This document shows positions 19,750 to 62,800 of a stretch of DNA of 64,000 nt, in pieces. Below the pieces are notes generated by a model that was not told where the DNA came from, did not search any database, and worked only from the letters and a program-made list of their open reading frames with translations. The DNA comes from Mytilus edulis (Eukaryota). The stretch spans positions 20,522,001 to 20,586,000 of the forward strand of contig NC_092350.1 of NCBI RefSeq assembly GCF_963676685.1, read 5' to 3'. A program made the translations under genes and the position numbers. The first letter of the stretch is position 1. The number at the start of each line of letters is the position of its first letter.

Positions 19750-21699
19750 TTTCTACAGTTTGTAATAATTCACTTATCGTACATATGTTACGGAAGATGA
19801 GGACTAACTGCTGGTTTTTTCTTCATTTGTTCTGTACTGGTCAATAACCTTATTTACATATTTTATATCTACATAATATATATCTTTTTGTTGTTCAATG
19901 ACAATGCTAGAAAGTGATTCATTATATACATGCACGAAAAAAATAATGCACATAGACGACTGTTCACAAAGATAATTAAATATGCGTTGACATATGTAAA
20001 TGTTGAGTTAAGAATGTGTTGAACAAAAAGGGTTAGGTATTGTTTCGCCGATAATTCTATTGAAACCACAATTTATAATATATGCCATGGTCAATTGATA
20101 TAAAACTAGCAACCTAACCAAAAAATCCTTTAATAGAATACAACATGTTTCAGAAATAAAGGTCATTGTACATGACACATATATGTAGAACGGTCCGTTA
20201 TAGACTTTTGATAACATTCTTTGTATAATTGCATTTTGCAATTTTGACAACCTAAAAATTGAAATATAATAATAATTATTTTGATACGAATCCCGACAAG
20301 CCCTCCAAAATATAATGATGTTTAGCAATTCCCCTAAACATTTTATTTTAGAGATTCTAACACTATTTTGATCGGTCTACTGAACTACCGAAAGTAAAAA
20401 GTAAACAAACAACTAATTTCATTAAACATCATTCGCTTTCACCTCTTATAAATATGTGCATATGGTAACTGACAAGTTGTTAACTCTGTAACGAGCTGGT
20501 TTCAATTCTAGACATTGATCTCAATGAACCAAAAAGGAATTAGAGTAGAGAATGGAAATGAGGAACGAGTCAAAGAGACAAAAACCAGACCCCAGAGTAG
20601 AAAACAGCCCAAGACAACCAATGGTCTTCATCGCAGCAAGAAACGTCCGTGTCCGAAGGTGGGCTTCAGCTGATCCTTAAGCAGTAATATATACTATTTC
20701 AACGAAATGGACGCCACACTGAACACTGAAACATATGAACCTAATGATAAAAAAGGCTTGGGGTTCCTGTCTTATAACAGACCAACCAATGCGGGGATAC
20801 ACATATGTTTTGTGACATCTTAAGCCTATACATTTAGCCAATGTGGAATAAACAAATACACCGCACTACTTACAATACATTATTAACAGTAATAGTTTGG
20901 GTAGGGAGAAAAGGCCACCGAAAAAACTGAACCATAACAATATGAGTTGTGTACAACATTGTACATATGATAAAAACTAAATAATATTGTAGAATCAAGA
21001 CTGAAAAGGAAATATAAGTTAAACTGACCAAATCAATATAATGAATTGAGAACTTCAGGAAAGAGGTATGATAAGAATAAGTTAAAGAAAGCAATGCATG
21101 AATGTAAGAAGACCATTTCTTGGAAGGAAGACAAGTTTAATTGAACAATTCGAGATAATTTTGGGGATATTGATCAACAGTGGGAAACGGCGTGATATTT
21201 ATTAGAGTAAAGAACATTTGCAAATTTGACTGGTGTAGACGAAATGCGCGTTTGGCGTATAAAATTATAATCCTGGTACGTACTTTTGATAAATATTTAA
21301 TATAATACCCTTTTGGTACATTTTTGAAATACCGGTAATTGCGACATTAATTACGGCAACAACTTAGAAGGTGTTTTTTTAACGATTAACATAAAAATCA
21401 ATCTGGTTTCACACATATCAACAAATAAATCATATAACCTGCAATGCAATGATTTTTAGTAAGTCCGCTTTCCATATATTTATTCAATTTATGTAAACAA
21501 TAATACAGGTAAAGTCACTTTAGCACACAATTTTAAGCAAGTCTGAAAGGTAACAATATTGTATGCTTATTTAAAAGTTCATGCTTATCTACTAGTATAT
21601 ACTATTGATTTTGTTTGTTTCCTGCTTCAAACAAATAAGCATGCATCTATATCGACAACCATAATAACATGAATAAGTGACGGGGGCGTGTGCATGTAA

Positions 21700-22170
21700 A
21701 ATTTTCAACGATTAAATTCAAATAGGCTTTTACTGGTAACAAAAGCTGTTTTAGTCCCGTCTTGGGGGTCCATGCCCACTTGATGATAACCACTAGCCAA
21801 ATCGAGAGTACTAAACAATAGGTTTCCCCTTAGTGCATCAAGACAGTCCTCTATTCTAGGCAAAAGGAAATTATCTTTAATAGACACATCGTTGACTAAG
21901 CGAAAATCAATATACAGGCGAATTGACTGGTCCTTCTTGCGAACAACTACAATAGGGTAGGTCAATGGTGACTGGAAATGACGTATAATACCCCATCAAG
22001 CATTTGTTGTATTTCTTTGTCAACCTCTTTTCTTTGAGCCAAAGGTACACGTCATGGGTTTTGTTTTATGGGATGATCATCTCCTGTATTTATTTTATGT
22101 TGTTTTATGTCTCTCCTACCCAGGTCATTTTTGGATATTGCAAAAGCGCCAGAGTATTTAGTTAAAACTA
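21700..22170 (-). mobile_element. Ty3/Gypsy LTR-retrotransposon RT fragment (degenerate)
   Basis: HKINTGD..PIKQ, PIVVVRKKD..IRLYIDFR, LPRIEDCLD, FSTLDLASGYHQV, KTAF; stops and frameshifts present. Confidence 0.88.
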
Positions 22171-22241
22171 AAAGGTCAACTAAAGATTTGCATTTATTCG
22201 CTTAAATTTGGGGTTACTTTAACACTTTTCCATCACAACTT

Positions 22242-22785
22242 ATTACCTTAGCTGTATTTGGCAAAACTTTAAGGAATTTTTTGTCCCCAATGCTCTTTTA
22301 CTTCGTACTTTTTTTTTACCTGAGTGTTTGATATTTTTTAGACGGAGCTTTGTAGACGGAACGCGCGTATGGCGTAAATATAAAATTTCAATCCTGGTAT
22401 CTATGATGAGTTTATTTACAACCACTAGGTCGATGTCACTGCTGGTGGAGTTTTAATTCCCCGAGGGTATCACAAACCCAGTAGTCAGTACTTCTGTGTT
22501 GACTTTAGTTATCATTGATAATGTTCATAATTATAAATTAACTGTTAACAAAACTTTATAATTTTTGAAATACTAAAGCTTTTCTACCTTAGGAATAGAT
22601 TACCTTCGCTCTATTTGGCCAAACTTTTATGATTTTTTTGTCCTCAATGCTCTTCAACTTCGTATTTTATTTGACCTTTTTAACATTTTTTATTCGAGCG
22701 TCACTGATGAGTCTTTCGTAGACAAAACGCGCGTATGGCGTAAATATATAAAATTTCAATCCTGGAATCTATGATGAGTTTATTT
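22242..22785 (+). ncRNA. Retrozyme-like repeat: ~1.5 tandem monomers (~368 nt) carrying type I hammerhead motifs (both mutated)
   Basis: gcgtca-CTGATGA-gtct..agac-AAAA-cgcgcg-TA-tggcgt at ~22698-22741 (G12 lost); a decayed first motif at ~22340-22375. Confidence 0.8.
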
Positions 22786-23964
22786 GCATATGTTCAGGTA
22801 AAACTAAATCAAACTCGATTCATAAACCCAGCTTTTTTTTCTTGACATAAACTGAAACATAAAATTAAATAACATTTTATGAAATATTACTGACATAAAA
22901 TGTCCTTGAAGGTCTATTCAACCGTGAAACCGGTATGATATTATCATGATTATGGGGGATACTATGGAGAACAATATGAACAATTTGACAAATTGAGGAT
23001 AGAAATGGGGAATGTGTCAAAGAGACAACAACCCGACCATATAACAGACAACAGCAGAAGGTTACTAATAGGTCTTCAATGCAGGGAGAAATTCCCGCAC
23101 CTGGAGGCGTCCTTCAGCTGGCCCATAAATAAATATATACACTTGTTCAGTGATAATGAACGTCATACTAAACTCCAAATTATACACAAGAATCTATAAA
23201 GTTAAAAAGGATACAAGACCAACAAAGGCCATAGGCTCCTGACTTGGGACGTACAGACGCAAAAATGCGGCGGGGTATATATGTCAGTATGGCATTCAAC
23301 AATAATCAGACCCCATTTTGCATACTTGCAGTCAGTTGAAAATGACTCGATCGAAATGACATATGTAGACTATACACAGTATCGGGCAAAACCTCAATAC
23401 TTCCTATTATTGGGTATACGGGGATGTGCCAAAAATATGGGTCATAATTTTGCGAGATTTTATATAAAAATGACCCTCCTTTTTAATGACATCCTATATT
23501 AAAATGCATTTACGTTTGATAACTGTATATTGATTTGGGGTATGATCTACATATCATATATAAATATGCTATTGAGAATCTTACATTATTAATGGTCAAT
23601 TATTATATTAGATTAAATCGATTCATTTGAAAGTTCACCTTTCAAATAAGTACCCAAATGAACCATCAAACGATGTCAATTCATATATAAAAACTTAAGG
23701 GTAGATGGTATATTTATGAATTATGAGTGATGATGAGTTAGTGCTTATATAAGCATGGGTCATATTTTAAATATTGTATATAAGTATAGGTCATTCTTTT
23801 TTTTATAAATATTTATGTAACTATAGGTACTAAATTTCAGTGAATGCTATAATAAAATGGGTACGTTTTTTGAGGCAAAAATGGCACACACCTACCAAAA
23901 AAATATCGAAGTTACCCCCCCCCCCCCCCCCGTGTGTCGCATGTCGAGATTCCCTGTAAAAGAA

Positions 23965-26042: not shown

Positions 26043-29000
26043 ATGCCTAAGATAATAATTCACACCAACATAAAGAATGAAGACATTCCTGATGACTTTG
26101 AAGAAAAAGTTGCACAAAAAGTCTCTGAAGTCGTAGGGTATCCAATTGAGGTGGGTATAACTTTCGTTTTATTTTTTTTAAGATCAGTTTAATTGTTTGT
26201 TTACAAAAGTTTTAAATCCTGTAATTTCCCTCTCATCAAGTATACATACAAAACCATGTGTGTAATGATACATGAAAGGCCGTAGATAAAATTATCAGGG
26301 AGACTTGATTAACTTGATAGCCAATAAATTGAAAAGATCATACTGCTATTCTGACACTATGTTAACAAAAGTGTCAAAATATTCTTCATACGTATATGAA
26401 TGAGCTGGAGGGAGAACCCCCTGTTTACACAAACGTCTACAAAAACAACAGTCCCTCTGATTAAACTTATTTGCAAACCACCTGAATTACGTGTATTGCA
26501 GATATGACACCTCCCCATTGTTAACAGACGTAAAGGGGATTCCTCTCGATGGGAAAAGTGTACCCTAGGAAATGATTGTATACACCGGTTCGAGAGGGAC
26601 ACAGTTATAATTCCATTTATTGTTTTCCTGAAAAATCAACCCCTTAAAAGATCGACAACCTCCAAATTCCATTGCCGAAACTAATATTTAAATAACTTTT
26701 ATCTTTTAACATTTCAAGAACGTGAACAATATATTATTTATATTTTTTAGATGTGTGGTCTTAAACAAATACGACAAAAAAAGTCTTTCATAAATTGTGA
26801 ATATTATCCAAACAGTACTAAAAGGACGAAACCAAATGTTTAATCGTTATAACATAATTAACGCTATAAAAATAATTATTTCTACTCTATACAAAGTCCA
26901 TCAAGAATCATTTCAAGAGAAGCTTGGACTCTTGTTGAAATTTGTAACAAGCAAGATTTGATGAATAAATACTATTATGTTGTTAAAATAAATAAATAAA
27001 AAGACTCATTTTGTCATCTTTCACGCAGTATGAACTAAAAGCTCCAAAATACAACAATCTGGCACAGCAGTGATATTCAAATATTTTTTATATTTCCTAC
27101 ATGCAATAGTATGTACAGTTTATAGTATTTACAATGGTTGTAATGGGACTGGCGGGTGGAATATTTTGTGAATCGAAATGTTTGTATATAGTTAAACAGA
27201 TGCATCAGCCAAGGTCAAGTATTATGAAATTGAAAGATCAATATGCTTTACACATTTTAGAATTAAAAGCACGTGATAATAAGTATTCAAAACTAAGAGA
27301 CGTTCCATATAAATATGTGTAATTGTATAAAACTAATATATATTATAATCAATAACTACGTAATTTTGTTATTAGTTAATTTTAATCAAAATAAATATTA
27401 TTTTTATATACAAACTTTACTACACATTCATGGCTCTACAATCTGTCTATACCGATTTCTCAACATTGCACAAGGTAATGTTTTTCTCTAACGTTTTCAC
27501 ACTAAATCCATAGGAAGCTGGATTTATTAGTAATGAATGATTTTTATAGTCTTATATGTATGTTTTTTTTATATTAGTTGTCATTGGCTTTGGACTCGCT
27601 GTCAGTAACTGCGAGTACACTCAGATATGTACTTGGTGTCGTTTTGTGATGTATATATAAGTACCCTGCCTCGTCTACTCTGTTTTTGTTCGATGCATTT
27701 CTATTATGTATCTATGTATCCATTTGATGAGTTGAGCTGATTTTATAGTTTGTTCTTATATTGTGCTGTTACACCACTGTCCATGGTTAGGGGAGGGTTG
27801 TTGCACCTTCGACCCGTCACATTGTATGATGATGGAAGTTTTTAACAACATTGACTGGCTATACAGCCCTCACACGGGCAGTCACATTTTGTATGTGCCT
27901 CACCAAATGCAGGTGTCTGAAATTCAGTTGTTGTCGTTTGATGCTATAGATCGTATTTGTTTTTCGCTCATTATTTATGTATAAACCAGACCGTTAGTGT
28001 TCTCGTTTAAATTTTTTCAATTTGTCATTTCTTTGCATTTTATAGCTGACTTTGCGGTATTTTTTTTAACTCATTGTTTTAGGCCGTACGATGACATTTT
28101 AATTCCGGTGTCATTTGGTCTCTTGTGGGGAGTTGTCTTATTAGCAATCATATCACATCTTATTTTTTAGTATAAGCCAATGTCCTCATTAAATTGAATT
28201 TCTGTTTATTGTGCTATTGTCATGAAATGTATTGTTCTGCGTAATTTTTGCTTATCTACATTGTCTATAGAGTGTCTTTATGCCATTTGAGTTTTCTTTG
28301 TTGAAATAGTTATTTATTTTTATACTCTTTATAGTGATTAAGATTAAAACACAATCAGAATTTTTGACAAGTTTACCTCTTATGTCTGTATGCTTTGCTC
28401 ACACATTGCTATTAAGTTTAATAGAATTTCATTCAAATGGCATACATGTGAGATGTTTAGCTAGCTATAAAACCAGGTTTAATCTACCATTTCTATAAAC
28501 GGAAATGCCTGTACCAAGTATAAAGAAATATGACAGTTGTTATCCATTCGTTTGATGTGTTGAACTTTTGAGTTTTGCCATTACATGAAGGACTTTCCGT
28601 CTTGAATTTTCCTTTGTGTTCGGTAATTTTGCTAGTTTACTTTTTAATTTAATGTTATATGAAAGTACTATTGTGCATCTAACATTGAATCGTCTATATA
28701 CAACGTGTCGCATTCTATCGGAAACACCACTTTACATACAAATAGAGATATAATATAACAGCTTTAAATGAGACAACTAAATAAAAATGAATCGAGAAGC
28801 AATCGGACATGAAAAGGACGAATACATATATCAAGTCTAGCTTTTCAACTGTATGTGTAAATATTGCAGATTATATATGTGTCTGTAACCCCTGGTGACA
28901 GGATGATACACAATGGTAGCCGGGATCCAATGGCGTTTGTTGATATTGATACTGCACTGAAGTTCAATGAAGAAGTAAATCCTGGTTATACTGTAAAATT

Positions 29001-31094
29001 CCAAGAATTCTTTACCAAGGCGCTCAATATTCCATTATCAAGGTACTGTGATACTGTTAATCATGTGTTGATGAGAAAAAACGTAGAGAATACTCATATA
29101 AATGTACAGGTAAAATGACAACAATTAACAATTAAAAGTTGAAAAGATATACCCTGAAAAGTTGGAGGTCATCTTGCGGTTTGTGAAATGAATGATATTT
29201 TTACCTACTGCACTTAGTTTTAATGATAGTCGAGTTTACTTAAAATACGACGTTCGATCATTGTTCAGAAAGTATTCAAAATCGACGATGCACAATGAGC
29301 TCAAACTGTTTGATCCTTACAAGAAGCCCGAGGATATGCATCCTGCTTTTACGATAAGTATGTTGCTGTTCCAGCTGACAAAACCTCTAACAATACTTTT
29401 GTATATGCAAACATCGTTATTTGGAACATTTCGTAGAATAAATTGGAATTTACAGCAAAATTGGGAATCCCACATATACCCTTACATCATTGACGAAATA
29501 GGACAGTTTAGAAAATTACAAATTCTCCCTTGTCTCCTTTGTTATATACAAACAAAAATTATGATGAAAACTCAAATCTTTAAACTGAATACATTAAAGA
29601 CTGTAACTTCACAAACATCTTTATAAAGAACAAGATAAAACGGTGGTCGTCAAAGGTTGGTCAAAGCACCTTTCTTAAGTTTTTACCACCATTATTTCCA
29701 AAGAAAGAAATTGCAACCATAAATTTTGTGATGAAGTACAATGTATATTCAACCTTCAATGGCAAGCAGACGTTGATTTTTAAATATGTATCCTAAATTA
29801 TTTAAGCACAATCTTTACAATTTTGCAGTAATAAAAAAAAACCTTGATTTTTCTACCTTTTACACTTAAATTACCCATGCCCAATTGAAGTATCGGCTAT
29901 ACTATCTCATTAAATAGAACTTTTGGGAAACGTACAGAAAATTTCCATGTTTTAGATAATAAAATCCTTATTTTGTAAAGAACCACTGATTCCCACAAAA
30001 AATAAACCTGGACGTATTTGTTTTATCAGCAACATATTTATTGAAATTTGTGGCATGATATTTTCAGTTGGCATTGTAATGGGTACTTATGGTTCACAAT
30101 ACTGGGCAACTTGTGTGTGTACTCATATAAAGTTGATTTCATTCAAAGCCTTCTAAAGACAGATAGAAAAAGTAATTTGCAAAGTTCTTTCATATCATTT
30201 TCAGTTATATTGCTGATGGTTTTTACTCAATAAACCACATTTCAATGAGTGCTTACAGTTCATATATCCAAGTGAACCTGAAATTAATGATACAACCGAG
30301 AGTAGAATGTCTGCTTCCCATCTTTATCTTTTCATCTGTGTCAATATGTAGAAAACGATCAACATATGGAGCAGACCTTCTACTTTCTCAATAGTTACAT
30401 GCTATCTACTCTACGTTTGGTGTTTAAATGTCTCAGTAACCCTCGTGTACATAAATGTTCACTTTATACATACTTCATTAACAGTGATGTGCTTCTTACA
30501 CATAAAGAGTTACGACAACGAATCAATCAACAAAACGTACGTTTTACGGTCACCATCACAAATTAGATAATATGTGTCTTGTTTTAACTCAATAGCAAAT
30601 GCTTCCTTGGAAATGAAGATACAAGTATAGTCAATCTAATTACTTGACCCTCATTAATATTTTGTTGGCTTGTGATTGATATTAACTTGGTTATTTGACC
30701 CGTCACGATAACATGTTTGTTTGTGAAGGATATTTGGTTAATTGACCCTCAACGACTACTTGTTTGTTTGTGAAGTATAATGGGTTACTGTACCGTCTTT
30801 CTAACTTGTTTATGATTGATTTTTGATTAACTTATCCTCTGTTTGGTAGCTTGACAATCCAATATAACTTAAACAGGATGAGGAGGTGTGGTCAATGAGA
30901 CAATTGTCTACCAGAGTTCAAATGAAATTTTATTTTATTTGACAGTTCAAGATGTTCCATAACTATTGCATTCATCTCGATTATTTTTCTTTTTATTTAG
31001 GTTAGTTCTTCATTATCACGACGCCAAAGTATCAGATTATGGAGTATACAGAAGAGCACCCGAATATAAACACGAACAATATTTCTCACAATAA
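26043..31094 (+). CDS. MIF/D-dopachrome tautomerase-like protein 1 (124 aa); exons 26043-26150, 28870-29042, 31001-31094
   Basis: MPKIIIHTNIKNEDIPDDFEEKVAQKVSEVVGYPIE|IIYVSVTPGDRMIHNGSRDPMAFVDI...LNIPLSR|LVLHYHDAKVSDYG... Met-Pro start; 108/173-nt exons with phases 0 and 2, as in canonical MIF genes. Confidence 0.9.
29190..30570 (+). mobile_element. Highly degenerate Penelope-like RT remnant in intron 2 of MIF-like 1
   Basis: Colinear similarity to 41360-41591 and 52472-53650 (e.g. DKYVAVPADK, YPSEPEINDTTES..SASHL). Confidence 0.65.
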
Positions 31095-31429: not shown

Positions 31430-31990
31430 AATAAAGAAGGAGCGAAAGATACCAAAGGGACAGAAAAACTCATAGATTGAAAATAAACTGACAACGCCAT
31501 GGCTTCAAAAAACAACAAACATACAAATAATAGTACACGAGACACAACATAGAAAAATAAAGACTAAGCAACACGAACCGCACCAAAAACTAGAGGTGAT
31601 ATGTGGTGTTCCGGAAGGGTAAGCAGATCCTGCTCAATATGTGGCACCCGTCGTGTTGCTCATGTTATTACAAACCCGGTAAATAATCTAACTCGGTAGG
31701 TCGCATTCGTAAAAAGGGAAGGATACTGTAGTTACGACATAAGGAACGTATCCGATATCATATGTGATTCCATTACGGTCAACCAACTCGTGATGGCGTC
31801 CATAAAATTTACAAAGGAATGATTTCAACTTCACCTTTGGAACTCTTGGTTTAATAGCTTCCTTGTGAGCAACAACCCTCTATCAAGGAAATCATGAAGC
31901 CCGGAAATATCGTATCATTTGGGAGATATATACTTCGTATGCAGGTGTTGCTGGAATGTTGCTACATAAAAATGGAATTCGCAATTAGGA
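31430..31990 (-). mobile_element. 3' end of the Penelope-like element (weaker copies at ~36000-36230 and ~37575-37920)
   Basis: Reverse-complement similarity to 53400-53970. Confidence 0.75.
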
Positions 31991-32231
31991 GCTGAATTGA
32001 ACTCCAAAAAAGTAACATTGGTGTATTTTGGGACTAACAAATCTTATTTTACGTTGCACTTCAATGTTTCTGTTGTTTCGTTGTTTTCCTCCTATAGTTG
32101 ATGTGTTTCTATCGGTTTTAGTTTGTAACCCGTATTTGTTTTCTCTCAATCGATTTATGACTTTTGAACAGCGGTATAATACTGTTGCCTTTATTAATAC
32201 AATTTAGTTGTCATGGACAGAATATGTAAAG

Positions 32232-32502
32232 CTGTAAATAGTTATCAAAGGAACCAGGCGTATAATTTAATACGGGAGACGCGCGTTTCGCCTACATAAG
32301 ACTCATTGGTGACGCTCAGATCAAAATAGTAAGAAAGCCAAACAAGTACAAATTTGAAGAGCATTGAAGACCCAAAATTCCAAAAATGTGTGCCAGCTGG
32401 GATAAAAAAAAATCTTAGTTTTTCGAATACTTTTCAAAACAGTAAATTTATAAAAATGACTACATACTTGATAACAAAGTCAAGACTGAAGTGCTGACTA
32501 CT
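32232..32502 (-). ncRNA. Retrozyme-like partial monomer with a mutated hammerhead
   Basis: Minus strand gagcgtca-CCAATGA-gtct..aggc-GAAA-cgcgcg-TC; homologous flanks. Confidence 0.7.
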
Positions 32503-39827: not shown

Positions 39828-40393
39828 TAAGCTTTTTTTTACCTCAGGAATAGATTACCTTAGCTGTATTTGGCAGACCTTTAGGAATTTCGGTCCTCAA
39901 TGCTCTTCAACTGTGTTTCTATTTTTAGCCTTTCTAACTTTTTTGGATTCGAGCGTCAATGATGAGTCTTGTGTAGACAAAACGCGAGTTTGGTGTAAAT
40001 ACAAAATGTATTCCTGGTATCTATGATTAGTTAATTTACAACCACTGGGTCGATGTCACTGCTGGTGGAGTTTTAATTCCCCGAGGGTATCACCAGACAA
40101 GTAGTCAACACCTCTGTGCTCACATGAATTATCATTGATATGGTCATATTTATATATTAACAGTTTACACAACTTTTGAACTTTTGAAATACTAAGGCTT
40201 TTTCCCTTAGGAATAGATTACCTTAGCTTGGCAAAACTTTTAGGAATTTTGGTCCTCAATGCTCTTCAACTTCGTATTTTATTTGGCCTTTTTAAATTTT
40301 TTGGATTCGATCATCACTGATGAGTCTTGTGAAGACGAAACGCGCGTCTGGCGTAAATACAAAATGTTATCCTGGTATCTATGATGAGTTTAT
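39828..40393 (+). ncRNA. Retrozyme-like repeat, ~1.5 monomers (~358 nt); the second hammerhead has an intact core (40311-40354)
   Basis: CTGATGA (40317-40323), stem II gtct/agac, GAAA (40337-40340), C-GCGC-G minimal stem III, GTC triplet ending at 40348. Confidence 0.85.
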
Positions 40394-41359
40394 ATACATA
40401 ACACATTATTCAACCGAAACGACAACATAAACATCATATATAAACACATATATGTTGGGTGTATAAAATACAGAGACACATCGTAAAGCTGCAAATACAC
40501 ACTTGATAAAATAATTATATTTGGGGAGAGTAAGCGTATCCATGCATGCATCATTCGCGATGCGAATCAACACTTAGTCACCATGTAGAATAGTACACAA
40601 TCGGTAAAATTACATACCAGATGACTATGATAGTATCTAAAGATCTAAGTCCGACAGCGAAAACATGTGAGTTGAGACACTGACTCACCTTGTAGCTCAA
40701 CCACGTCGCGAAGTTGGCAGTAAAACTTATAAGTGTAAATATATAACTGATGATTTATAGATAAAGTGTTGATTTCAGTCGTCATTCCTCACAACTCTGT
40801 TTCAGCAGTTCTTATGTATGGAGTGCAGTCCTGTTAACGAAGTCCTATAGTGTGAGTATACAGCGTAATGAATTGATTGAGATATGTACGACGGAGCAGA
40901 GGGTATGTAACTGCTATTAAATTTAAAAGCAGAACAAATCTGACAGTAATGGTGCACAATCAGTGCCAACTGAAATCCCAACTGCCTGCTGAAATATTAT
41001 TCCACCGAACTCAACAACTACGTTGTCAATCAAAAAGTGCAGCATTTGGTGATACAGGTATCATCTTCTGTGTATTTGTTGTGGGAATTAGTGCGGTTCA
41101 TAACAAAGAGAGGTTTTCCGTGGCCCAAAACAAGAATTTTGTATTGTCGCTCCTCATTTTTGTAGAAAATAAATTGTTAATGGTATGAAATAGTCAATCC
41201 CTAATAAAGTATGGAGAATAGAAATGTAACGGAAAGACCAATAAGAGGTTTTCAATCAAATTGAAACGGTATCACACTATTTCTACGTCTGGGTTTTTAA
41301 GTAGACAGAATAGTGGTAATACATAAAAAAAAAATGTGTAGTCGAACATGAATTAAGGC

Positions 41360-41591
41360 AGTGAGGTCGTTGATACAACACAGAATTAAGAAACTGAATG
41401 GGTCTACCAATGCCCATTCTACGTCAATCTTTAAAGACCCAAATGTTGCAAAACACGTATCCTACCTCCATGACAAATATGTAGTTGTCCCCGCAGATAA
41501 AGTCCTAAACAACATCGTTTTTGTGTGTACAACATTACATTAACTGCTTGATAAACGAATTGGGTATTGACAATTTACTTGGAAACTCAAC
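41360..41591 (+). mobile_element. Penelope-like element, 5' portion (interrupted by the TIR element)
   Basis: LHDKYVVVPADK..NNIVFVC; the sequence resumes at 52472 across the CTCAAC duplication (LGNS-TYTLT). Confidence 0.8.
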
Positions 41592-43399: not shown

Positions 43400-43650
43400 A
43401 TCCTGTTTTGTATTAGACCGACACCCTGAGTAAGATTTTTAACATGCTAGTTCACAGAAATCCGTTTCACCTTACCCGGACAGATTATTCTGATTCCGAG
43501 CCGAACAAGTCTTTGATTTTACACCTTAATTTAGCAGGGAAGCAGCAAATACCAATTTTAAATTCTTTGGTTTAAGTTGAACCGGCCGGGATTCGAAACT
43601 ACGACCAGCAACACTAGAGGCTAACATGCTACCATGAAAGCACCGCCACT
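43400..43650 (-). mobile_element. tRNA-derived SINE, degenerate
   Basis: Minus-strand head tggtagcatgttagcc...gtttcgaatcccggccgg resembles A/B boxes. Confidence 0.5.
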
Positions 43651-45089: not shown

Positions 45090-45241
45090 GATAAAGTGTA
45101 TAATACATGGCAAAATCCGTATCACATGCCGTATCACCCTCGACCAATATCATCCCTCGGGCCTAAAGGCCCTTGGGCTGATATTGATGTCTCGGGATGA
45201 TACGACATATGATACGGATTTTGCCATGTATTATTCTCTAT
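45090..45241. mobile_element. Foldback MITE, ~150 bp
   Basis: ataatacatggcaaaatccgtatca... / ...tgatacggattttgccatgtattat around a central gggcct-aa-aggccc. Confidence 0.75.
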
Positions 45242-45369
45242 GTATCACTACAATATACTTGTGATTACAGTGAGGTTGAAATCCCTTTTATTTATTCATC
45301 ATCCACGCACGAACTTGTCTCAGAAAAAAATATATCTCAGTAAGTTAACCTCACTTTCAGGTATAGAGA

Positions 45370-51300: not shown

Positions 51301-51820
51301 TATCAAAGAACCCTAAGAATTGCTTGTTTTAAGTCCAGTTTTGGCCCCTAATTTCTATAAAGTTTTTGTTTGGCAACAAAGTATTTACGGACAACGAACA
51401 CATCGCAAAAACCTTATACGGCGGCAAATCTATAAATATAAACAATTGAATACCACTATTCTATTTAAAAAAAAAATCAAAATTAAAGGCTCCTATCACC
51501 TCTTTATGGGGGTTGCAAATGACCGGTCCATTATATTAGTCATCACCCTATCAATGTCCGGTTTTTGTCCATTTTTGTGTCTTTCTTCAGAAAAGTGATA
51601 TATAAAGAGAAACTTCCACAGCTAAAATGATCAGCAAATTAAAGCAAACTTTACAATGAGCATAGAGCATGGCATAAAAGAATCATTTCTTTAATTTAAT
51701 AACTTTAACTGTATGCCCATTATTGTAGACTTCGTATGTTCATTATTGTAGACCCATTGATTAAAACTAAACTTTTCAATTCATAATTTGACAATTTTTC
51801 AATAATATATGGTGTGATTT
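45370..51820. repeat. Tandem triplication of a 2148-bp unit
   Basis: Identical ORFs at 45764, 47912 and 50060. By eye the copies differ mainly in homopolymer lengths and one substitution near 51075. Confidence 0.95.
45675..46033 (+). mobile_element. tRNA-derived SINE (also at ~47823-48181 and ~49971-50329)
   Basis: A-box-like tggtggtct, B-box GGTTCGATTCCC, a central segment (gtcggaagggaacgataaa...cgttaaagacaccc) resembling Deu/Nin-type cores as I recall them, and an AT-rich tail. Confidence 0.7.
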
Positions 51821-52471
51821 TTTCATCTTAAATCGAGGAACAAACATGTCAAGGTTTTTCTCTTTTTACATCTCAACCATTTTCCAAACGATAGCTACAG
51901 ATTTGATCCGGGTTTATATTAATTCTGCAGAAGTAGATCGGAATCAGTTATGACGTAGACAGTAATCATTCTAATCGTAATCATGTTCATTGACCATAAC
52001 GACGATGAAAGCACATCATATAATGACGTTTCGACATCATATAATGAAGTTAACCGAACCACATGATATAAGATTTCAAGCACATAATATAATGACACAA
52101 CCACATCATATAAAGATGTTTGCACATAATATAAGGGAAAATGCACATCATATTAGGATGTTTGCACATCATTTAAGGATCTTTGCACATCATATAAGTA
52201 TATTTGCAAATCATATAAGTACATTTGCACATCATATAAGTATTTATGCAAATCATATAAAGATGTTTGGACATCATATAAAGATACTTGCACATAATAT
52301 AAGCATATTTGCACGTCATATAAAGGTGTTTGCACATCATATAATGACAAGTGCACATCATGTAAAGGTAAATGCACATCATATAATGACAAGTGCACAT
52401 AAAAAAAGGTAAGTGCACATCATATAATGAAAAGGGTCATAAGAAGACAGTTTTGGCGTTCCATACTCAAC

Positions 52472-53970
52472 ATATACCCTCACGACACTTACCAAAGAGG
52501 AAATCCTGGATACTCATAGGTCTGTTCTATATTCCTTTGGAATTTCAACTAAAGATGAAGAACTGGATCTTCCGTCTCTGTATTGGATACCTAAACTACA
52601 TAAGAGTCCTTACAAACAACGGTATATTGCTGGGTCTTCCAAGTGCTCCACGAAACCTCTTTCTAAATTATTGATATCTATGTTATCAGCAAACAAAGCC
52701 AGGCTTCAACGTTATTGTTTAACTGCCTAATCTAGAGGTGGCGTGATTCAGATGTGGATACTAAATTCAAAGATCTTTAAAAGTGCATACAATCTAACTC
52801 TCTTTCATCTTGCAATAGTATTAAAACATTTGACTTTTCTACACTTTACAAAAGTACTCCACATTCAAAACTAAAAAACAAATTGAAAGAGTTGGAATTG
52901 CTTTGTTTCATAAAAAAGAATGGCCAACGTAGATAAAAGCATCTTGTCTTAGGGAGGGATAAATCTTACTTAGTAAAGGATCACTCTGATTCAAACAAAT
53001 AATTCTCTGAATCTGACATTATCAAGATGCTTGATTTCTTATAGACAATATATTTGTTACGTTTGGAGGACGTGTTTTTCAACAGACAGTCGGCATTCAA
53101 ATGGGAATCAATTGTGCCCCTATTCTTGCCGACTTGTTTCTTTATTATTATGAGGCTGACTACATACAGGAGTTTCTTAGGAAGGAAGATAAAAATTTAG
53201 CAATATCCTTTAACTTTAATTTCCGCTTTACAGATGATGTTCTCTCACTAAATAATTCAAAATTTGGTGACTATGTTGAACGCATCTATCCAATCGAACT
53301 AGTGATAAAAGACTTACATCTAGAAATTATGGGTCGGTTGAAAACAAATCTTAACGACAAAAGAGATGATTTCAGCTTTCTAATTGTGTACTTTCCATTC
53401 TAAGTAGCAACATTCCAGCAGCACCTGCATACCGGGTATATATCTCCCAAATGATACGATTTTCCCGTGCTTGTATTTCCTATCATGATTTTCTTGATAG
53501 AGGGTTGCTGTTCACAAGGAAGCTATCAAACCAAGAGGGTCCAAATGGTGAAGTTGAAATCATCCCTTCGTAAATTTTACGGACGCCATCACGAGTTGGT
53601 TGACCGTTGTAGAATAACTGTTACACAGATGATATCGGATATGTTCCTTACTTCGTAACTACAATCCACTGCACTTTCAACAATGTGACCCACCGAATTA
53701 GACTATTTACCGAATTTGTTGTAACATAAGTAACACGACGGGTGCCACATGTGCCACAGGATCTGCCTACCCTTCTGGAGCACCTGAGATTTCCCCCAGT
53801 TTTTGGAGGGGTTCGCGTTGCCTATTCTTTAGTTTTATATGTTGTGTCATGTGTACTATTGTTTGTCAGTTTGTTTGTTTGTCTTTTTTCATTTTTAGCC
53901 ATGGTGTTGTCAGTTTATTTTCGATTTATGAGTTTGACTGCCCCTCTGTTATATTTCGTCCATCTTTTAA
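52472..53970 (+). mobile_element. Penelope-like retroelement RT and 3' end (degenerate)
   Basis: YWIPKLHK.PYKQRYIAG, TFDFSTLY, GIQMGINCAPILADLFL, FRFTDD, DKRDDFSF, KFYGRH; many stops and frameshifts. Confidence 0.85.
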
Positions 53971-55144
53971 AGACTAGGTAAATATCATTATTTGTCTTTC
54001 TCAATGTTGCGCCGATCGGAATATACCTGAAAACAATAATCTTGAAACTGTAAATACGATCAACTGTTTTGGTCAACGTCAGATTTCAAACTGAAAAACT
54101 GTCAGATTCTTTTTAGCATGTTGTGTTTAAAATAACTACACATTTACGTAGTCCTTATTGCCGGTTAACATGCAAACAGTAGACGAGGACGTTTAAGGAC
54201 AAATTAACGACTCTTGTATTTAAAGGATATATAATAACTATCTTGAAAGGTAATCGATTGCATATCATAACGTTTAAAACATCGTTGTTAAGTGAATTTC
54301 TACGCATAAAATCGAGGCCGACATGATGACTATGGGACATGAATGTCATATTCGCGGAAAATATAGTGCGGGAATTATAAAATACAAAAGAACTGAATAA
54401 TTGTTTATTATGAAGATAATTACTTCAAACTTTGCACAACACTCAATATTTGCTTTTTGTTGAAACTTACTATTGTGGTTCATCTACACCCAGAAAATTC
54501 ATGACAGGCAGTACCTTGCGGTTAATGATTAAAATTGCCTGTCGGTACAAATTTCCCTACGGCAGGTCACAAAATGCTTTGATCGCTAGAAAAGAAGGCA
54601 TCATTCCAAATCTCAATTAACAGAACCTACTACTTTATAATGAAAATTCTTGTTAGTGCTTATGGATTTTTATTTTCATCACGTTTTAAGATTTCTGTAG
54701 ACAATTTTCAGTCAATATGTGTCAGTCAACTTGTCACTAGACATATGGACAGTTTGACTAAATGTTTTTTCTTCTTTTTAACTACAAAGGATCTCTGAAC
54801 TCAAAGAACTTTTTACATATGAGACACACACGCTTATAATAAAAATTAACATACGCACAAAGCGCGTACATACGACTCATTAGTGGTGCTAAAATCAAAA
54901 CAGTTGAAAGGCGCAATTAAACGGCAATCAAATGATACGGTTTATTATATTGATATTGCTACCTGTTGCCCCGATATCCTCCAATGAGACAATCTGGTTA
55001 TCATCTTTCATATATTGGCTATCATCATATGATTCAATGAAGTGGATTGTAAAAAAATATGATGTGATCTATCGAAATACCTTCTGAGCAGTACATGATA
55101 ATTGGAATAAGGACTTACACGGTATTACGAAAGCCCAGAAAGAT

Positions 55145-55292
55145 CATGCGAGATTCGATATACGAAATTCGAGATTCAATAATCTGAAGTTCGAAATTCG
55201 AAATTCGAGATTTAATAATCTGAAGTTCGAAATTCGAAATTCGAGATTCAATAATCTGAAATTCGAAATTCGAAATTCGATATTCGAAATTC
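55145..55292. repeat. Short tandem repeat of GAAATTC/GAGATTC heptamers within ~35-bp units
   Basis: Directly visible periodicity. Confidence 0.8.
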
Positions 55293-55915: not shown

Positions 55916-58719
55916 ATGCCTAGAATACTCATTCGTACGAGCTTGAAAGATGCAGATTTGCAAGATGACTTTGAAGACAAAGTAGCACAGAAAATTAGCG
56001 AGGTTCTTGAATATCCGTTAGAGGTAAGAGCAATTATGAAAAATCAAAGGTTAATTGAACGGTTTAGTTTATAAACACTATGACATGAAGACTTTTTTTA
56101 AAATATACTCAAGACCTGCACAATAAAATCTTATTATGATAGTAAAGAGTCTGAAATTCTACACATAGCAATGGAGTTCTTTGAACATTCAACCCTTCAA
56201 CCATACCAAGTTAAAATTAAAAATCATTTACATTATATGGTCCGAGACAAATATAGTCCCTATTGTTGACAGTGGGTTAATTGCCATTAACTTTTATACC
56301 CCCTCCGAATTTATTTCTCCATGTTTAATGCCTCATATTGCAAGTAGGGGTTTAAAATTACACTGTAGAAAAATTTGGGTCCAGAATTTTAAAGGAAAGT
56401 AGTGATTTGGTCTAGCTGAAAAAGGTTTAAAATTAGCACTTCGGAAGCTGTCAAAAGATTTCAAGACGCCCTAAACATAAAATTGTCCTTATTTTGAGTT
56501 AGACCCGATGAAGTTTTCTATGATTTTGATATAATTTGTCCCAAAAGTAGTACAACACACTGTAAAAATTTCATTGAAAAAGCGCAGGTGGGATTTTTTA
56601 AATTTTCATTTATATTCTAAAAGAAATGCACTACGAAATAATTGTGGTCTCGGACCATATGAAATTTCGACAGACGACAAAACATATGTGATATGTTTGC
56701 TTGTCAATATACCTACTAGGTTGACTTATCCCAATGGACATTTTAACATACAGATAATATAAAACAACGAATATCATCAGTCAGATGTTAGACAAGTATA
56801 AAGAAGATGACTTGGTATGATTGCCAATGAGGCAACTTTTCACAAGTGACAAAATGACACAGAAATTACAACTCTGGGTCGTTGTATGCAATATAACAAT
56901 GAATCCGAACAAAGCCCATACCTATAAGCCAGTTATAAAAGGCCCCGAAATGAAAAATGTAAAACAATTCAAACGGCAAAAACCAACAGCCTTATCTATG
57001 CCCCCCTCCCCCCAAACCAAAGGATATATGTATCTGTTTGTTAATTTTATAACAACAAAAGCTTTTTTTTTAATCTTGAAATCAGCGATACGTTATTTTT
57101 GTATCTTCTTTAACAACAAGAAAATGATACCTAAAAGGAGAATCAAAACTCAATAGCCGAAAAAACAAAACAACGGAAACCGTCCAAAAAACAAACACAA
57201 ATTTGTGGCGCCGTCTTGTTGTTCATGAATGCGCAAATGCGATTTGATTTTAATAGGACTTCTTGACTTTTAAAAATGTGTATAAAACTATAAAGTCTTT
57301 CATGGATCTACACAGAACGACTGTATTAACAATATCTATAGTGTACATTAATTTTGTTATTGCACTAGATATTGAATCGAAAACACTGAATTGAGCAAAT
57401 AAGTACGTCTAAAGTAAAATCGAAAAAATGCTGAACTCCGAGGGAAATTCAAAACGAAAAGTTACTAATCAAATGGAAAAATCAAAAGTTGTAACATCAA
57501 ACGAATAGATAACTGACATATTCCTGACTTAGTACAGGCATTTTTTTAAGGTAGAAAATTGTGGAATAAACCTGGTTTAATATATATTATAGCGTACGTA
57601 CTTTACTTTCAGTTGGTGTATATAAATGTATCAACAGGTAACAGGATGATAAATAATGGAAGGAAAACACCTATGATGTTTGTAGATATAGAATCAGTGA
57701 ACAGGTTTAATGAAAAAGTCAACGATGATTACACAAAAGTCTTTATTCCATTTTTTGCTTCATTACTGAATATGCCAACTAATAGGTAGTATTTTATTAT
57801 TTCATTGTTTAAAACTGTACAATATAAAATAAAAACAACTAAATATTGTAAATTAAAAAATATGTTAATGTATCTTAAAAACGTATTTATATATCTAGCA
57901 TAATTCGGTGAATATAAAAAAAGAAGATTTGTTTTGTACATTGATCAGGCCGTTAGTTTTCTTGTTTGAATTGAATTATTTTGTATTTGTCATTACTTGC
58001 CCTTTTAAAACTTACTTTATAGTATAAGTTTGTTTATTGTTAAAGGCTGCACCCTCTGTTCCATTGGTGGAGGGAGTTGTCTCATTGGCAATCATAACAT
58101 TGATTTCATTGATTTCGACTAACTTTGTTGTTGTGTTAATGTTTATTTGTCAAACTTCTCAAAACATGGTTTATTTGAATATGTATATGTAAAGAACAAA
58201 AATTCATCTGTGGAAAAAGAGTATTATGTTTACTAATTATGAAAAAGATAATCTTTACTAAACTTTGACTTATCAAACTTTGCTACATTTAAGCAAGAAC
58301 GTAAACATGTAAGTGCAAAACACACTATATCAATTATATATATATATAACTGAATGCAAAAAATGTAGACAATCTAATTTTAAACTGGAACGCAACACTG
58401 AAGATTGAAAAGCTTCCGAATAACGAGCCTGATTATGCTCAAGACACGTATGCTTCGTACTGTCATACATGTTTGTGTTCCTTGCATTAAAATTTCTGTT
58501 AGTCATACGTTTAATTGTAAGTCGATCAGTGGATGTTTATTAATTGGATGTTCATAAACAAAATGAAATGATGATCAGTTTGTTTGCATTATAAACTATG
58601 TTCTCTTTTCTTTCAGAATTGTTGTAAAATATCATGATGCAAAAGTTCCCGATTTCGGAGTCGTTAGACAAGCACCAGAATTCAAGAGTGCTGAACATTA
58701 TATAGCATTGAAAGAATAA
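55916..58719 (+). CDS. MIF/DDT-like protein 3 (127 aa); exons 55916-56023, 57613-57785, 58617-58719
   Basis: MPRILIRTSLKDADLQDDFEDKVAQKISEVLEYPLE|LVYINVSTGNRMINNGRKTPMMFVDI...NMPTNR|IVVKYHDAKVPDFGVVRQAPEFKSAEHYIALKE*. Exons of 108/173/103 nt; a possible 5'UTR exon donor lies at ~55444. Confidence 0.9.
56235..56660. mobile_element. TIR-bounded MITE in intron 1 of MIF-like 3
   Basis: 14-bp perfect TIR ATATGGTCCGAGAC / GTCTCGGACCATAT; no clear TSD. Confidence 0.55.
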
Positions 58720-59773
58720 TTATTCCATGACATGATCAGACATGGCTCAATGTTTTTAATTTTACAGGATTTAATGCATGTACTTGAACATTCATATTGT
58801 TTTTCTATAGAATAGAATTTTCCTGTTAATTGAGAATAACTGTAATAAGTCGATCACTAAAAAAAATATAAATTACAAATATTAATTAAAATAGCTGATA
58901 TTTGACGGACACACACTTTTTTTTATTGAGAGCGTTTTCACACATTTTTTTGTAGAGATCCATTATTGAAAAAAACTGAAACTTCGGTTCGAAATCAACT
59001 CAACGAAAATGAACGTTAAATTCATTTTGTATTGAGACCTATTTTGTTTTATAGATCCAATGTGTATTTTAAATTTGGCTTCTTAAAGTTTATATACCAA
59101 CAGTTACACCTCTTGCCAAAAAGGGGTCGTACTTTTCAGTTGTTCTTGAGTCCGATATTGTAGCTTGAAATTACTCCGGGTTTATTTTGGGAAACAGTGT
59201 ATTACGGATAAAAATCCTGGAATATAATAAACCAAAATTTCCAGATATGACAACATGATGTACTGACTCTAAAACACTAAAGTAACCAAAACTACATCAT
59301 ATAGTCGTGAAGATTAAGTGTTTTGATACTTGTTCGTGAGTTTTGTCAATAAAAGTTCATGTGAATACTTTGTAAGGTCATAACATTATAATTTCTTCTT
59401 TTTTGTTTTAAAGTTTTTAAAAAGCTTATATGTGAATTCTCGGAGTTCGATATTTTTGTATTTACCTTTAAACTTGAACGCCACAAAAAAAAGATATTGT
59501 CAGTGGATGATGCAAAGATAACAAATACGACTGTTTAATATGACAATGAAAATATGTATAAACATTAACATATTGAACATATAAATTGCATTGCAATTTC
59601 ATTTACTAAATGTGTCTATACGGCAAGAACATCAACAGCAAGTAAAAGAAGCACAATTCAACGGACTGCCATGCCGAGTAAAGAGGACATACTTGCTATA
59701 CTTGTTTGGACCTTTTGGATTATAGCTCTTCATCTTTTATATAAGCTTTGGATTTCATATATTTTGGCCACGA

Positions 59774-59817
59774 GCATTACTGAAGAGACATGTATTGTCG
59801 AAATGCGCATCTGGTGC
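59774..59817 (+). ncRNA. Type I hammerhead ribozyme, second sequence family, core intact
   Basis: gcatta-CTGAAGA-gaca-tgtat-tgtc-GAAA-T-GCGC-A-TC-tggtgc; stems I, II and III all pair; ATC cleavage triplet ending at 59811. Confidence 0.82.
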
Positions 59818-62800
59818 AAGAAAATTGGTACCATTAATGTTATTATTGAATCTATAATGTGTAAGCCGATGTTATACCAACTGCATATATTGTTTACATC
59901 AATTTTCCTTTGTCATTAGTATTTGATTTGATTTGAATTACAAGTACCGTGTTTTACTAACCATTGTTTTCTTTTAAAATAATGGTGTAGTCTTGTATAA
60001 TCATACGTATGCTAGGGTATAATGTAATAGTTATGCGACCATATATCATAATTACTTTACGTTTTCGTCCGTTTATTATCGGAATTTAACCTTTTGCAAA
60101 ACACGGCTGATAGTGAAATAAACTGTTAATAAAATAAAATGTCTGTCTTACTAGCATCGTTCAATTTGTTCTTCAATGAAAACAAAACTTAAACTTTGTT
60201 CCATTAAAAATCGATTACAAAATGGAAAAAAGTTGATAATAATTTCAGGATTCAAACTATGAAAGTTATTTTTATAACATTTATGGGAGGGGGTATTTTA
60301 TCAAAGTGACAAGCAAGGAAATAGAAACAAATCTTCTAAAATAGTATAAACGTCTAGGAGTTAGTTATAGTGCTCTCCATCATATTGATTTATTATTTTC
60401 CCAAATTGTTTGGTTAAGTGTTGGGGTGGCATTTACCCCTTTTCAACGGCTCCTACGCCCATACTACTAAGTTACTATAATCAAATAGATAAAGGCAGAT
60501 GTGGTGTGAGTGCCGATGAGACAACTCTCCATCCAAATAACAATTTAAAAAAGTAAACCATTATAGGTTAAAGTACGGCCTTCAACACGGAGAGTAGGAT
60601 AAATTTTTTTTTCTTCATATAAGCTGTTAAGTTGTAGGTTTACCCATTGTTCCCATATTATGGAAAGATTACTAATCTATTAAGTTTTGCTGTCTAGTTC
60701 CTTTATTTTTTAGGGAAGTTTAATGATTTTTGAATCCATATCCTAGATTCAGGGGTTGGTTATTTTTTAAAGATATCTTGTGTCATGCTTGAGTTAGTAA
60801 AAGACGTTGCCAGTCTTGACCAGGGGAGTTAAAAGTTCTCTAGTGTCCCTTGTCGGAACTAAAGTTCCTCCTTTTTAAGATGGAGGGGGGTGTTGTGTAA
60901 TTGCCCAGTAGTTCTAGGGGGTTTCCTCTGTCTGGTGTGATCTACTGGTAAAGAGCAGAGAGACCCGAATGGTGACGTGCATGGCCTGGTAGAAGACTGG
61001 AGAGCCCCGAATGGAGACATGACACAAGGGTCACGCTTGACCGGATACAGCCTCTTCTTGACCTGGATGATCACGATACAAAGCCTATCGAGAACTAGAC
61101 AAGATTAATCCCTGTAGGATACCAAGCCATAAGGTAAATATCTACACATATTTACACCTGTTACATACATAACCCTAGGGGTATACGTAGAGCCCAGATA
61201 GACAGGCCAAGTAACACTTTACTAAGTCTATATTATATAAGATGAATTTGAAAAAAGTGTGAAATTGACAATTGAGAGTCGATAGTGTAGAGGTGAAATA
61301 TTTCTAAAAGGGGTCATCCCAAAAGTGAGAATTGCATAATTGACTTTTAGGGTGCATTGTAAAAATAGCGTTTATAATACGACTAACAATAAGTGTAAAT
61401 ACAAATTTTTATGTAAGCAAATATTTGGGTAACAAACAATAATTTTATTTGTACATGAATGTCATTCCATATTGTCATTTAAAACATGATTTTGTGTTGA
61501 TTGCTTGGTTTGTTTGTTGGTTGATAAAGTGTGTGCCAAATATCAAGTGACAAGTTCTTTAACTCGACATATTAGTTGATTGGTTATTTGATTGATCGAA
61601 TGCGTTATTGATTTATTTGTTTACAGTTTGCATAGTGCAAGTGACGCAGATTTCTTTTAGACTAATTCATTGATGGATTGTTTGTGTGACCGGGACAAAT
61701 ATTTAAAGAACATTCCTAGATTCAACAATATGTATTCAAACAAATCATCACATGACAAGATAATATATTTGAAATTATTTTCTAGATTTCTGACATATGA
61801 AATGAATATCTAGGATTCAGAAACAAGCAAAGTTGCTTCTACAAAACTGTTTCGTAGCACACAAATAAGAAAACATAAGTATAGATATTGGCATGCTCTG
61901 TGATAAATATATGAATATGAAAAGAGTGAAAAATACATTTGAAAAACGTAATAAACATGAAATTTTGTATTGTGTACAGTGTGAAATGCTTTGGGTTTTT
62001 ATTGGATGATGGCGCAGTAAAACTTCAACGATAAAAACGTTTGCTTCCGATAATGTATTTCTGCACAAACTTCAATATCTGCCGTTGAGCTAAAAAGCAA
62101 CATAGTGGTGTCAACTTGGACAGGAATGACTGGAACGGAAGCTTATATTCCATGTCTAGATCGATGTATATTGTATAAGATAAATGGAAGTGAGAGTAGC
62201 TTTCTTAATCATAACAACTATTTTATTTCAAATAAGAAACAGAACGGCGACCACTTCCTCGATTAAGTACAAGATGACGATACTAATGAAACGAGCGAAA
62301 ACAAAAGGCGAGGGAATCTTAAACAACAAAGTTCAGACCCATTTCAATTTTGTTTTTGATAAAACAAAAATTACAAACACAACAAATAAATAAAACATAA
62401 TTCCTTATGATCTCTAGAAAAGGGAAATGTAAAGATGAATATTAAATGATATTTTAGGAGTGTGTAAATACTTGCATGTTGCCATTGAAATTTATAAAAG
62501 AAAATGATAGGGTATTTTTGATAAGGGAAAAAAATAGGGTGTTAAATCCGTGCATGTTCCTTAAAATTCCATGATTCAGATATCAATACACATTTGCACT
62601 GACTCGAACACCTATATTCAAAGAATCCATGCCCGACATCTTTTTTTTTCTCTTATTCCTAGAAGCATAGCTCCGCGTATTTTTTTTTTTTTTTAAATTT
62701 GTGCATTACATATTGGAAACTAGACATCACCATGATCACAGTAACTAATAATCAATTAATCAATCGATTTAAAATAGTTGTCTCTTAACGTTATGAAACC

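Follow-up and report, generated by a model that had tools for sequence, protein, structure and literature searches.

Retrozymes of the mussel Mytilus galloprovincialis are hammerhead repeats of 350-390 bp that self-cleave and accumulate as circles; circles dominate the retrozyme RNA in northern blots, and unit excision and circle closure were demonstrated (PMC7229834; here and throughout, statements about published work refer to the portions of each source that were available). Rolling-circle copying by the enzyme of a Penelope-like element (PLE) or of a long interspersed nuclear element (LINE) was proposed for metazoan retrozymes that lack long terminal repeats (non-LTR retrozymes; PMC7229834; preprint 10.1101/721605), and PLEs that bear hammerheads exist in mussels (PMC7229834). 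In the anole PLE Poseidon, internal initiation in vitro needs ca. 55-60 nt of RNA 3' of the start, and both target strands are extended (PMC11167929). The stretch analyzed here (hereafter "the window") comprises 64,000 nt of the Mytilus edulis genome (assembly GCF_963676685.1, contig NC_092350.1, positions 20,522,001 to 20,586,000), and it contains copies of a hammerhead repeat together with pieces of Naiad, a PLE. In pairs of short interspersed elements and LINEs (SINE-LINE pairs), a non-coding element uses the enzyme of an autonomous one, to which it is linked by a common RNA structure, and the same kind of borrowing is proposed below. The repeat and Naiad were found to share a hairpin and to end their insertions in the same register with it. 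As judged from genome sequence, the Naiad protein probably binds this hairpin, and reverse transcription of retrozyme circles would then begin a few bases upstream.

The repeats fell into three subfamilies with units of 364-366 nt (A), 355 nt (B) and 348 nt (C) and a G+C content of 33-39%; unit identity was 86% between A and B, 64% between A and C and 66% between B and C. Loci consisted of tandem units with unrelated flanks, displayed no LTR structure and encoded no protein. A first look yielded 6,462 candidates in the 1.37-Gb genome, and 68 matches per Mb were counted in blindly chosen stretches. The repeats are mussel-type non-LTR retrozymes, an assignment made by features, not by alignment to published clones, because size, ribozyme type, G+C content and abundance match the repeats of PMC7229834; the identity proposed in an earlier note on this DNA was thereby upheld. 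As in M. galloprovincialis, the ribozymes are type I hammerheads in low-G+C tandem units with thousands of copies and several ribozyme subfamilies, and the elements are likewise protein-free and expressed (PMC7229834). The available portions of that paper name no helper family, fixed insertion end or recognition signal. More than 100 intact hammerhead cores, mostly with a palindromic stem III, were present in the loci examined, which bears out the type I hammerheads of the earlier note at the level of the family; in the window, two of eight sites are intact and no locus has two.

A fourth hammerhead repeat of ca. 543 nt, with the palindrome UCCGGA, was also encountered, including a nine-unit array (L298:5200-10000; also L112, L105, L279 and L170). 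In this family, copy ends lie 300-370 nt past the cleavage site and often fall in TA runs.

The earlier note had described a common 3' boundary and variable 5' ends. Ends were mapped in a blind sample of 100 10-kb stretches taken at round coordinates (1 Mb in all), against natural tandem references of all three subfamilies, as a reference from one subfamily gives false ends at +37 and +3 for B and C. The sample contained 78 matches, ten of which belonged to the unrelated 543-nt repeat and were removed. The landmark was the start of a 62-70-nt hairpin. Fifty of the remaining 68 matches ended between -5 and +20 nt before it (a 26-nt span), four ran past it and 14 stopped 21-137 nt short; against uniformly distributed ends, the binomial P was 3e-42. 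Loci picked with a mid-unit query behaved the same way. Among young retrozymes, the modal gap to the hairpin was 3-4 nt, with 89 of 100 falling within -10 to +25 (a set that includes selected loci). The 5' ends were scattered over the unit, as they are in the window, and 12 of the 78 blind matches exceeded one unit; no excess of copies of exactly one unit was seen. There was no second cluster of ends of the kind that a second start site with a 30-40-nt tail would leave, and the four copies that pass the hairpin start do so at scattered points. The boundary is thus real and nonrandom beyond the window, and a fixed start of reverse transcription, as the earlier note proposed, is supported by the register of these ends with the hairpin.

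A reverse-transcriptase (RT) fragment from the window, used as a query, returned 27,307 genome candidates, many with intact frames of ca. 1000 codons (995 in the Naiad described next) in 3370-bp tandems. By the motif definition of PMC8557442, the protein (P0001) is a Naiad: an N-terminal GIY-YIG domain with a Zn-finger-like motif, a KR block, CxC, GxKY, DKA and a C-terminal RT are all visible. The element shares with the Naiads of that paper the N-terminal GIY-YIG, CxC, DKA, partial tandems, 5' truncation, dominance in bivalves and lack of a canonical hammerhead (PMC8557442). No match to a hammerhead core was found on either strand of the 3370-bp unit. The association of PLEs with ribozymes, which the earlier note had given as a reason for the pairing, therefore fails for this helper, which has no hammerhead of its own.

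At the tandem junction of Naiad, the first bases of the element match retrozyme positions +45 to +114. The identity to A is 83% over 70 nt, to B 86% over 71 nt and to C 81% over 98 nt (E = 3e-15, 7e-19 and 2e-20; the next match reaches only E = 0.6). Homology is thus confined to 62-98 nt at the start of Naiad and extends neither to the hammerhead nor to any other part of the unit. The hairpin lies in the Naiad 5' untranslated region, 18 nt ahead of the first ATG. Naiad copies end in the same register as retrozymes: 44 of 79 fragments in the blind sample did so, as did 18 of the 19 young ones, and the modal gap of young Naiads was 3 nt before the hairpin (67 of 74, in a set that includes selected loci). 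The link between repeat and helper is drawn because the hairpin is common to both families and in register with the 3' ends of both, not because of neighborhood, and the Penelope-like helper suggested earlier gains support on that ground. The RT pieces among which the earlier note placed the repeats are real, but both families occur in the window at genome-average density (Poisson P 0.44 and 0.39), and local clustering was rejected.

In Naiad, A and B, the shared segment folds into a five-stem hairpin with bulges (z -3.5 and -2.6), and the inner stems of the same hairpin form in circular units of A, B and C. In a 15-sequence alignment, 99% of cells pair. An 11-nt core of the hairpin occurs 11 times in the supplement of PMC8557442, of which ten fall within 60 bases of the start of a Naiad consensus and the other is at an internal junction; further variants are found there in one oyster and three coral sequences. 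The outer stem, compared by eye, is ACUGGGU/GCCCAGU in this genome, ACCGAAC/GUUCGGU in two oysters, ACUGAGU/GCUCAGU in Tgra, ACCAAGU/ACUUGGU in Mgal and ACCAGGU/ACCUGGU in Pfla-1, and the second stem is likewise re-paired across published Naiads, also by eye. The species labels of these consensus sequences are taken here to denote oysters, hemichordates and corals. Because published Naiad consensus starts carry the same core with re-paired stems, the hairpin would be an old feature of Naiads and the transfer would have run from Naiad to retrozyme. The available text of PMC8557442 describes no conserved 5' RNA structure or retrozyme partner; the hairpin is visible in the deposited consensus sequences. 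Literature searched by title and abstract contained no report of a Naiad start hairpin or of its capture by a retrozyme, although subscription journals, Repbase or supplements could hold one. A competing helix (columns 24-30 pairing with 54-60), which might form a pseudoknot, was discarded: it displays no two-sided change, is broken in Naiad and is not kept in the published consensus sequences. A second small hairpin directly follows the shared one (ca. 22486-22506 and 40105-40125 in the window); it is kept in A, B and C, is absent from Naiad and has two-sided changes in C, as seen in circular folds.

These data can be assembled into the following scheme. Tandem loci would be transcribed, hammerheads would cut out units, and a host ligase would close them. 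The Naiad RT-endonuclease would bind the hairpin, nick A/T-rich DNA and prime at a point 1-6 nt 5' to the hairpin; priming would often involve microhomology of a few T/A bases. Lying 3' of the start, the signal would not be copied in the first pass; in Naiads, the following unit of a read-through transcript from a tandem would restore it, and in retrozymes circularity would. On a cut linear unit, only the 35-50 nt between the cleavage site and the start would be available, and on a circle the RT could continue across the ligation site for repeated rounds, which would leave fixed 3' ends, random 5' ends and 0.1-21 units. Priming of both target strands would give back-to-back inverted pairs. The hammerhead would thus supply the circle and the hairpin the helper. 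As in SINE-LINE pairs, the enzyme would be borrowed through a shared RNA structure; unlike in those pairs, what is shared is not inside the insertion but past its 3' end, and it could be inherited only through tandem or circular RNA. A broader form of the proposal, to which we give slightly better than even chances, holds that the hairpin, found from corals to bivalves and hemichordates, would be the recognition and start signal of Naiad RTs, located 3' of the priming site like an element of telomerase RNA. Retrozymes would then be chimeras of a captured signal and an unrelated hammerhead, necessarily circular, and any circle that carries the hairpin could become a tandem array.

If correct, the scheme would name the enzyme that moves animal retrozymes and the RNA signal that Penelope-like RTs read; with a 65-nt hairpin, a mapped start and an abundant, intact and apparently active helper, both questions are testable. 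It would explain why retrozymes need a ribozyme and a circle, offer a model of how rolling-circle retrotransposition works and be relevant to template choice by the telomerase-related enzymes of PLEs.

Insertion marks were also inspected. Four events in which two copies are joined 5' to 5' in inverted orientation (seven of 117 copies) were found, and one of them (L025) joins a subfamily A copy with a subfamily B copy, each stopping at its fixed end; such back-to-back pairs fit Penelope-type insertion. At L133, a Naiad 3' end is fused in register to a B retrozyme unit. At L178 and L215, one family is inserted in the other, with duplications of 4 and 8 nt that include the element's T/A-rich end. 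Target duplications of at least 7 nt were above chance for Naiads (7/51 vs. 1.7% expected), and single retrozyme cases examined by eye featured 4-5-nt target duplications and one small deletion. At L105, L200 and L133, a retrozyme is immediately preceded on its 5' side by Naiad sequence of the same orientation, which does not continue after the retrozyme in the stretch examined; these junctions are possible template switches.

The form of the template was examined in arrays and RNA reads. Seven young B arrays contained 2-20 full units; six of the seven end at the fixed point, and their 5' ends are scattered. All five full units of L254 and 19 of the 20 in L301 are identical, and the two arrays differ by seven changes; means were 0-2.2 within young B arrays vs. 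1.3-10.5 between them. In 45 of 48 multi-unit A loci, within-locus divergence was below the mean between-locus value (0.060 vs. 0.099), and rare alleles were common to units 30 times more often within than between loci (76/12096 vs. 122/577376 sites). These patterns fit repeated copying of one circle, and local homogenization or assembly polishing could mimic them. The very young B sub-lineage, with up to 21 units at 98-100% identity, comprises L301 (G000:C3:104727500-104736000), L254 and L302-L304; these loci are candidates for currently active sources.

The same helper and signal might instead act on a mainly linear, partly cut multimer, with long arrays growing later by unequal crossing-over; we consider this unlikely, though it is the best placed of the alternatives. 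Dimer or trimer periodicity in L021 and L174, and common alleles shared among units (92 of 660 within-locus differences in A arrays separate two common alleles, vs. 21% between loci), speak for it. Five of 12 A arrays of at least three units begin near the cleavage site (at a fraction of 0.10-0.15 of the unit, in the style of 2.0-2.2 units), and the 5' ends of long A arrays at selected loci lean towards that site. In vitro, the anole PLE did not need hammerhead cleavage (PMC11167929). Linear multimers or expansion at the DNA level may contribute to older arrays. Against it stand the young arrays, in which 5-20 units are identical and carry variants private to the array and in which the 3' end is fixed and the 5' end random; the low within-locus divergence given above and the dominance of circles in mussel retrozyme RNA (PMC7229834) also argue the other way. 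The rolling-circle copying of the earlier note is therefore supported by arrays of identical units but may not account for all older arrays.

RNA reads came from four runs of two studies with the same species label, which may represent another individual or species. Each run held 2,682-6,105 matching reads in 7-13 million records; the retrozyme is expressed. Reads crossed the cleavage site without a drop, which again suits linear multimers. No pile-up of RNA ends was found there in any of the four runs, and a sense excess of only 1.3-2.5-fold was present in three libraries and absent from the fourth; both results weigh against the scheme. Go-back joints of 360-366 nt are as compatible with tandem DNA as with circles, and the reads neither show nor exclude circles. 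The depth of Naiad reads drops 40- to 100-fold at the boundary into heterogeneous flanks, and retrozyme reads leave the unit at +47/+48.

It is improbable, and more so than a linear template, that the hairpin is a processing or promoter signal, with RNA cut or initiated immediately upstream and the free 3' end then used for priming by the enzyme of a Naiad or a LINE. The position of the hairpin in the Naiad 5' untranslated region would suit such a role, and a full-length Naiad (L188) starts at the hairpin without an upstream repeat. An 8-nt motif (GGTATCT plus the next base) lies ca. 20 nt upstream of both families' ends, and an open LINE-type RT frame is present in the window. If RNA were cut there, no copy should be longer than one unit, but 12 of the 78 blind matches are, and arrays reach 21. 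Nor are 5' ends enriched at the hairpin start (4/66); no RNA ends pile up there, and inside the inserted copies retrozymes and Naiads have no common 3' tail beyond the 8-nt motif. That the shared segment is a relic of a Naiad terminal repeat, the repeats being moved today by a hammerhead-bearing PLE, is the least credible account: Xenopus retrozymes do resemble terminal repeats of hammerhead-bearing PLEs (10.64898/2026.07.22.740005), and such PLEs exist in mussels (PMC7229834), yet the hairpin is more than 80% identical in subfamilies only 64-66% alike overall, and young arrays with 98-100% identity still end 0-4 nt before it, which argues against a relic, as a relic would not fix the end.

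Several further observations weigh against priming by Naiad at the hairpin on circular RNA. Binding, priming and circularity are steps that we infer from the fixed end, the shared hairpin, its register, the arrays of identical units and the inverted pairs. Covariation within this genome was not significant (60/500 shuffles), the sequences being too alike, and the cross-species re-pairing was read by eye. Retrozyme-retrozyme inverted pairs were absent from the blind 1 Mb, an inverted Naiad at the 5' end was found in none of 68 Naiad copies, and target duplications of at least 7 nt were not above chance for retrozymes (4/79 vs. 2.8%). The 543-nt repeat is a hammerhead family that lacks the Naiad hairpin and ends elsewhere. 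The helper candidates compared were Naiad families, and more than one of them qualifies. The start of the published Mytilus Naiad consensus has 22 exact matches, which represent a second Naiad family with a related hairpin; the helper would thus be one of at least two families. The outer stem of the 3370-bp family is identical to that of the retrozymes. In a comparison with other Naiad families, the hairpin was not found in seven loci of a TGA-containing Naiad family (40,684 candidates), five of which share a full-length start, or in Naiad-2 loci, whose 5' ends may be missing.

The TGA-containing Naiad (loci L246, L250 and L251) is young and very abundant. Each of the four in-frame TGA codons in its 1002-codon frame aligns with a cysteine of the other Naiad, and the element is likely a selenoprotein Naiad, as its reading frame suggests; the available part of PMC8557442 names clams and spiders, not mussels, for selenoprotein Naiads. 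Its 3' ends are located in the window at ca. 5728-5813, 19121-19206 and 22990-23075, all on the minus strand.

With priming by Naiad on retrozyme circles as the preferred reading, the mussel elements can be set beside two other PLE systems. Poseidon is alike in its fixed internal starts 3' of a hammerhead, its requirement for RNA 3' of the start, the cutting of both strands and its A/T-rich targets (PMC11167929), and the 62-70-nt hairpin would fit the role of the RNA required there. Poseidon differs in being autonomous, with its own hammerhead and two starts 85-92 nt past the cleavage site that give a 30-40-nt tail (PMC11167929); mussel retrozymes have one start site and no tail class, and their signal is proposed to be used in trans by a protein-free element. 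Xenopus retrozymes likewise have homology to PLE termini and co-occur with PLEs, but the link in that study consists of PLE terminal repeats, and its available portions sample no molluscs and map no mechanism (10.64898/2026.07.22.740005). In mussels, the partner is a Naiad without a hammerhead, and only the start hairpin is shared; homology to a PLE terminal repeat that includes the hammerhead region was not found against Naiad, and hammerhead-bearing PLEs were not searched. The element class and the proposal of a PLE helper (PMC7229834), as well as the terminal-repeat support from Xenopus (10.64898/2026.07.22.740005), are known already. The blind end count, the arrays of identical units, the mixed inverted pair, the negative controls and the cross-phylum re-pairing are added here.

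In the window itself, an nhmmer profile of its own repeat yielded eight matches, and a three-subfamily profile recovered the same eight segments (E = 7e-89 to 4e-6) in six loci, which include all six hammerhead loci of the earlier note. They are decayed copies of subfamilies A, B and C of the 348-366-nt type I hammerhead repeat. The first, on the plus strand at 21234..21299, is a 5'-truncated B copy of 66 nt that starts within the hammerhead, lacks the CUGANGA core and ends 2 nt short of the hairpin position. The second (22242..22788, plus strand) is an A retrozyme of 1.5 units with a period of 366 nt that ends 1 nt short; its first hammerhead core is deleted (site after 22369), and in the second GAAA is changed to AAAA (site after 22735). 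A 270-nt B copy on the minus strand (32233..32502), with a mutated core and stem I, ends at the hairpin position. The fourth locus (39835..40398, plus strand) is an A retrozyme of 1.55 units with a period of 358 nt, ending 1 nt short; two changes have altered the core of its first hammerhead (site after 39990). A heavily decayed fragment at 54848..54915 on the minus strand (E = 4.4e-6) has an unreadable 3' end. The last (59695..59845, plus strand) is a 5'-truncated C copy of 151 nt that is 95% identical to a C array and ends 3 nt short. In the two longest loci, cleavage-site equivalents are 366 and 358 nt apart, in agreement with the ca. 1.5 head-to-tail units noted before. In the five copies whose 3' end can be read, that end lies 34-53 nt past the cleavage site, a range somewhat wider than the 35-45 nt first given, and 0-3 nt short of the landmark.

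Each long locus holds a Naiad-type hairpin on the plus strand, at 22419..22488 (covariance model 86.2 bits, fold z -0.98) and at 40039..40108 (83.7 bits, fold z 0.25); in both, the outer stem is decayed, and neither folds as a hairpin alone. Two of eight hammerhead sites (cleavage after 40348 and after 59811) retain CUGANGA, GAAA and paired stems II and III. One, at 40311..40354 on the plus strand, was found by Rfam RF00163 (25.9 bits) and by a descriptor scan; it has an intact core and a palindromic stem III, and its stem I is weakened to three contiguous pairs. The other, an intact subfamily C type I hammerhead at 59774..59817 (plus strand), was found by the descriptor scan and has the palindrome UGCGCA and six of six stem I pairs; as it is a lone site, release of a unit is impossible. 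No window locus has two intact hammerheads, so none can release a unit, and the window's copies are ordinary dead insertions. The covariance-model check gave only two matches in the window, both below the Rfam gathering threshold (25.9 bits vs. 34; 25.2 vs. 48.5), a cut-off that would miss this hammerhead family. Two reading frames that overlap retrozyme copies had no Pfam match.

Two copies related to the 3370-bp Naiad had their ends mapped in the window. A 5'-truncated 3' end on the minus strand (31433..32004), 84% identical to the young family, stops 5 nt short of the hairpin position. A second, 5'-truncated copy on the plus strand begins with an upstream piece at 41348..41591 and continues at 52465..53969 with a broken RT frame and the 3' untranslated region, 87% identical to the young family; it ends 3 nt short. 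The two parts are split by a 10.9-kb DNA-transposon-like insertion (41592-52465) with a 6-bp target duplication and long inverted ends that carry 21-bp minisatellites; it contains three near-identical 2148-bp tandem units (45370-51763). Its ends begin with TATGG and presumably place it near the IS3EU DNA transposons.

Other features of the window were also recorded. Three dispersed MIF-like exons (28861-29118, 36533-36621 and 57550-57789; Pfam PF01187 for two of them; repeat family D18) probably belong to a small tandem gene family that encloses the repeats. A TMEM101 exon is found at 7651-8160. The LINE-type RT frame mentioned above is open over 535 codons (940-2547), and a short RT fragment of the LTR-retrotransposon type occupies 21705-21995 on the minus strand. 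Perfect or near-perfect inverted repeats at 4385-4455 and 5040-5174, with weak scores to microRNA models, are probably the ends of small DNA transposons. A 59-bp satellite is present in 20 copies at 95% identity (14481-15662). Finally, an abundant repeat with a fixed T-rich 3' end is located at 27995-28173, 37164-37329, 43090-43271, 46251-46440 and 56798-56981 (families D11, D12, D14 and D19).

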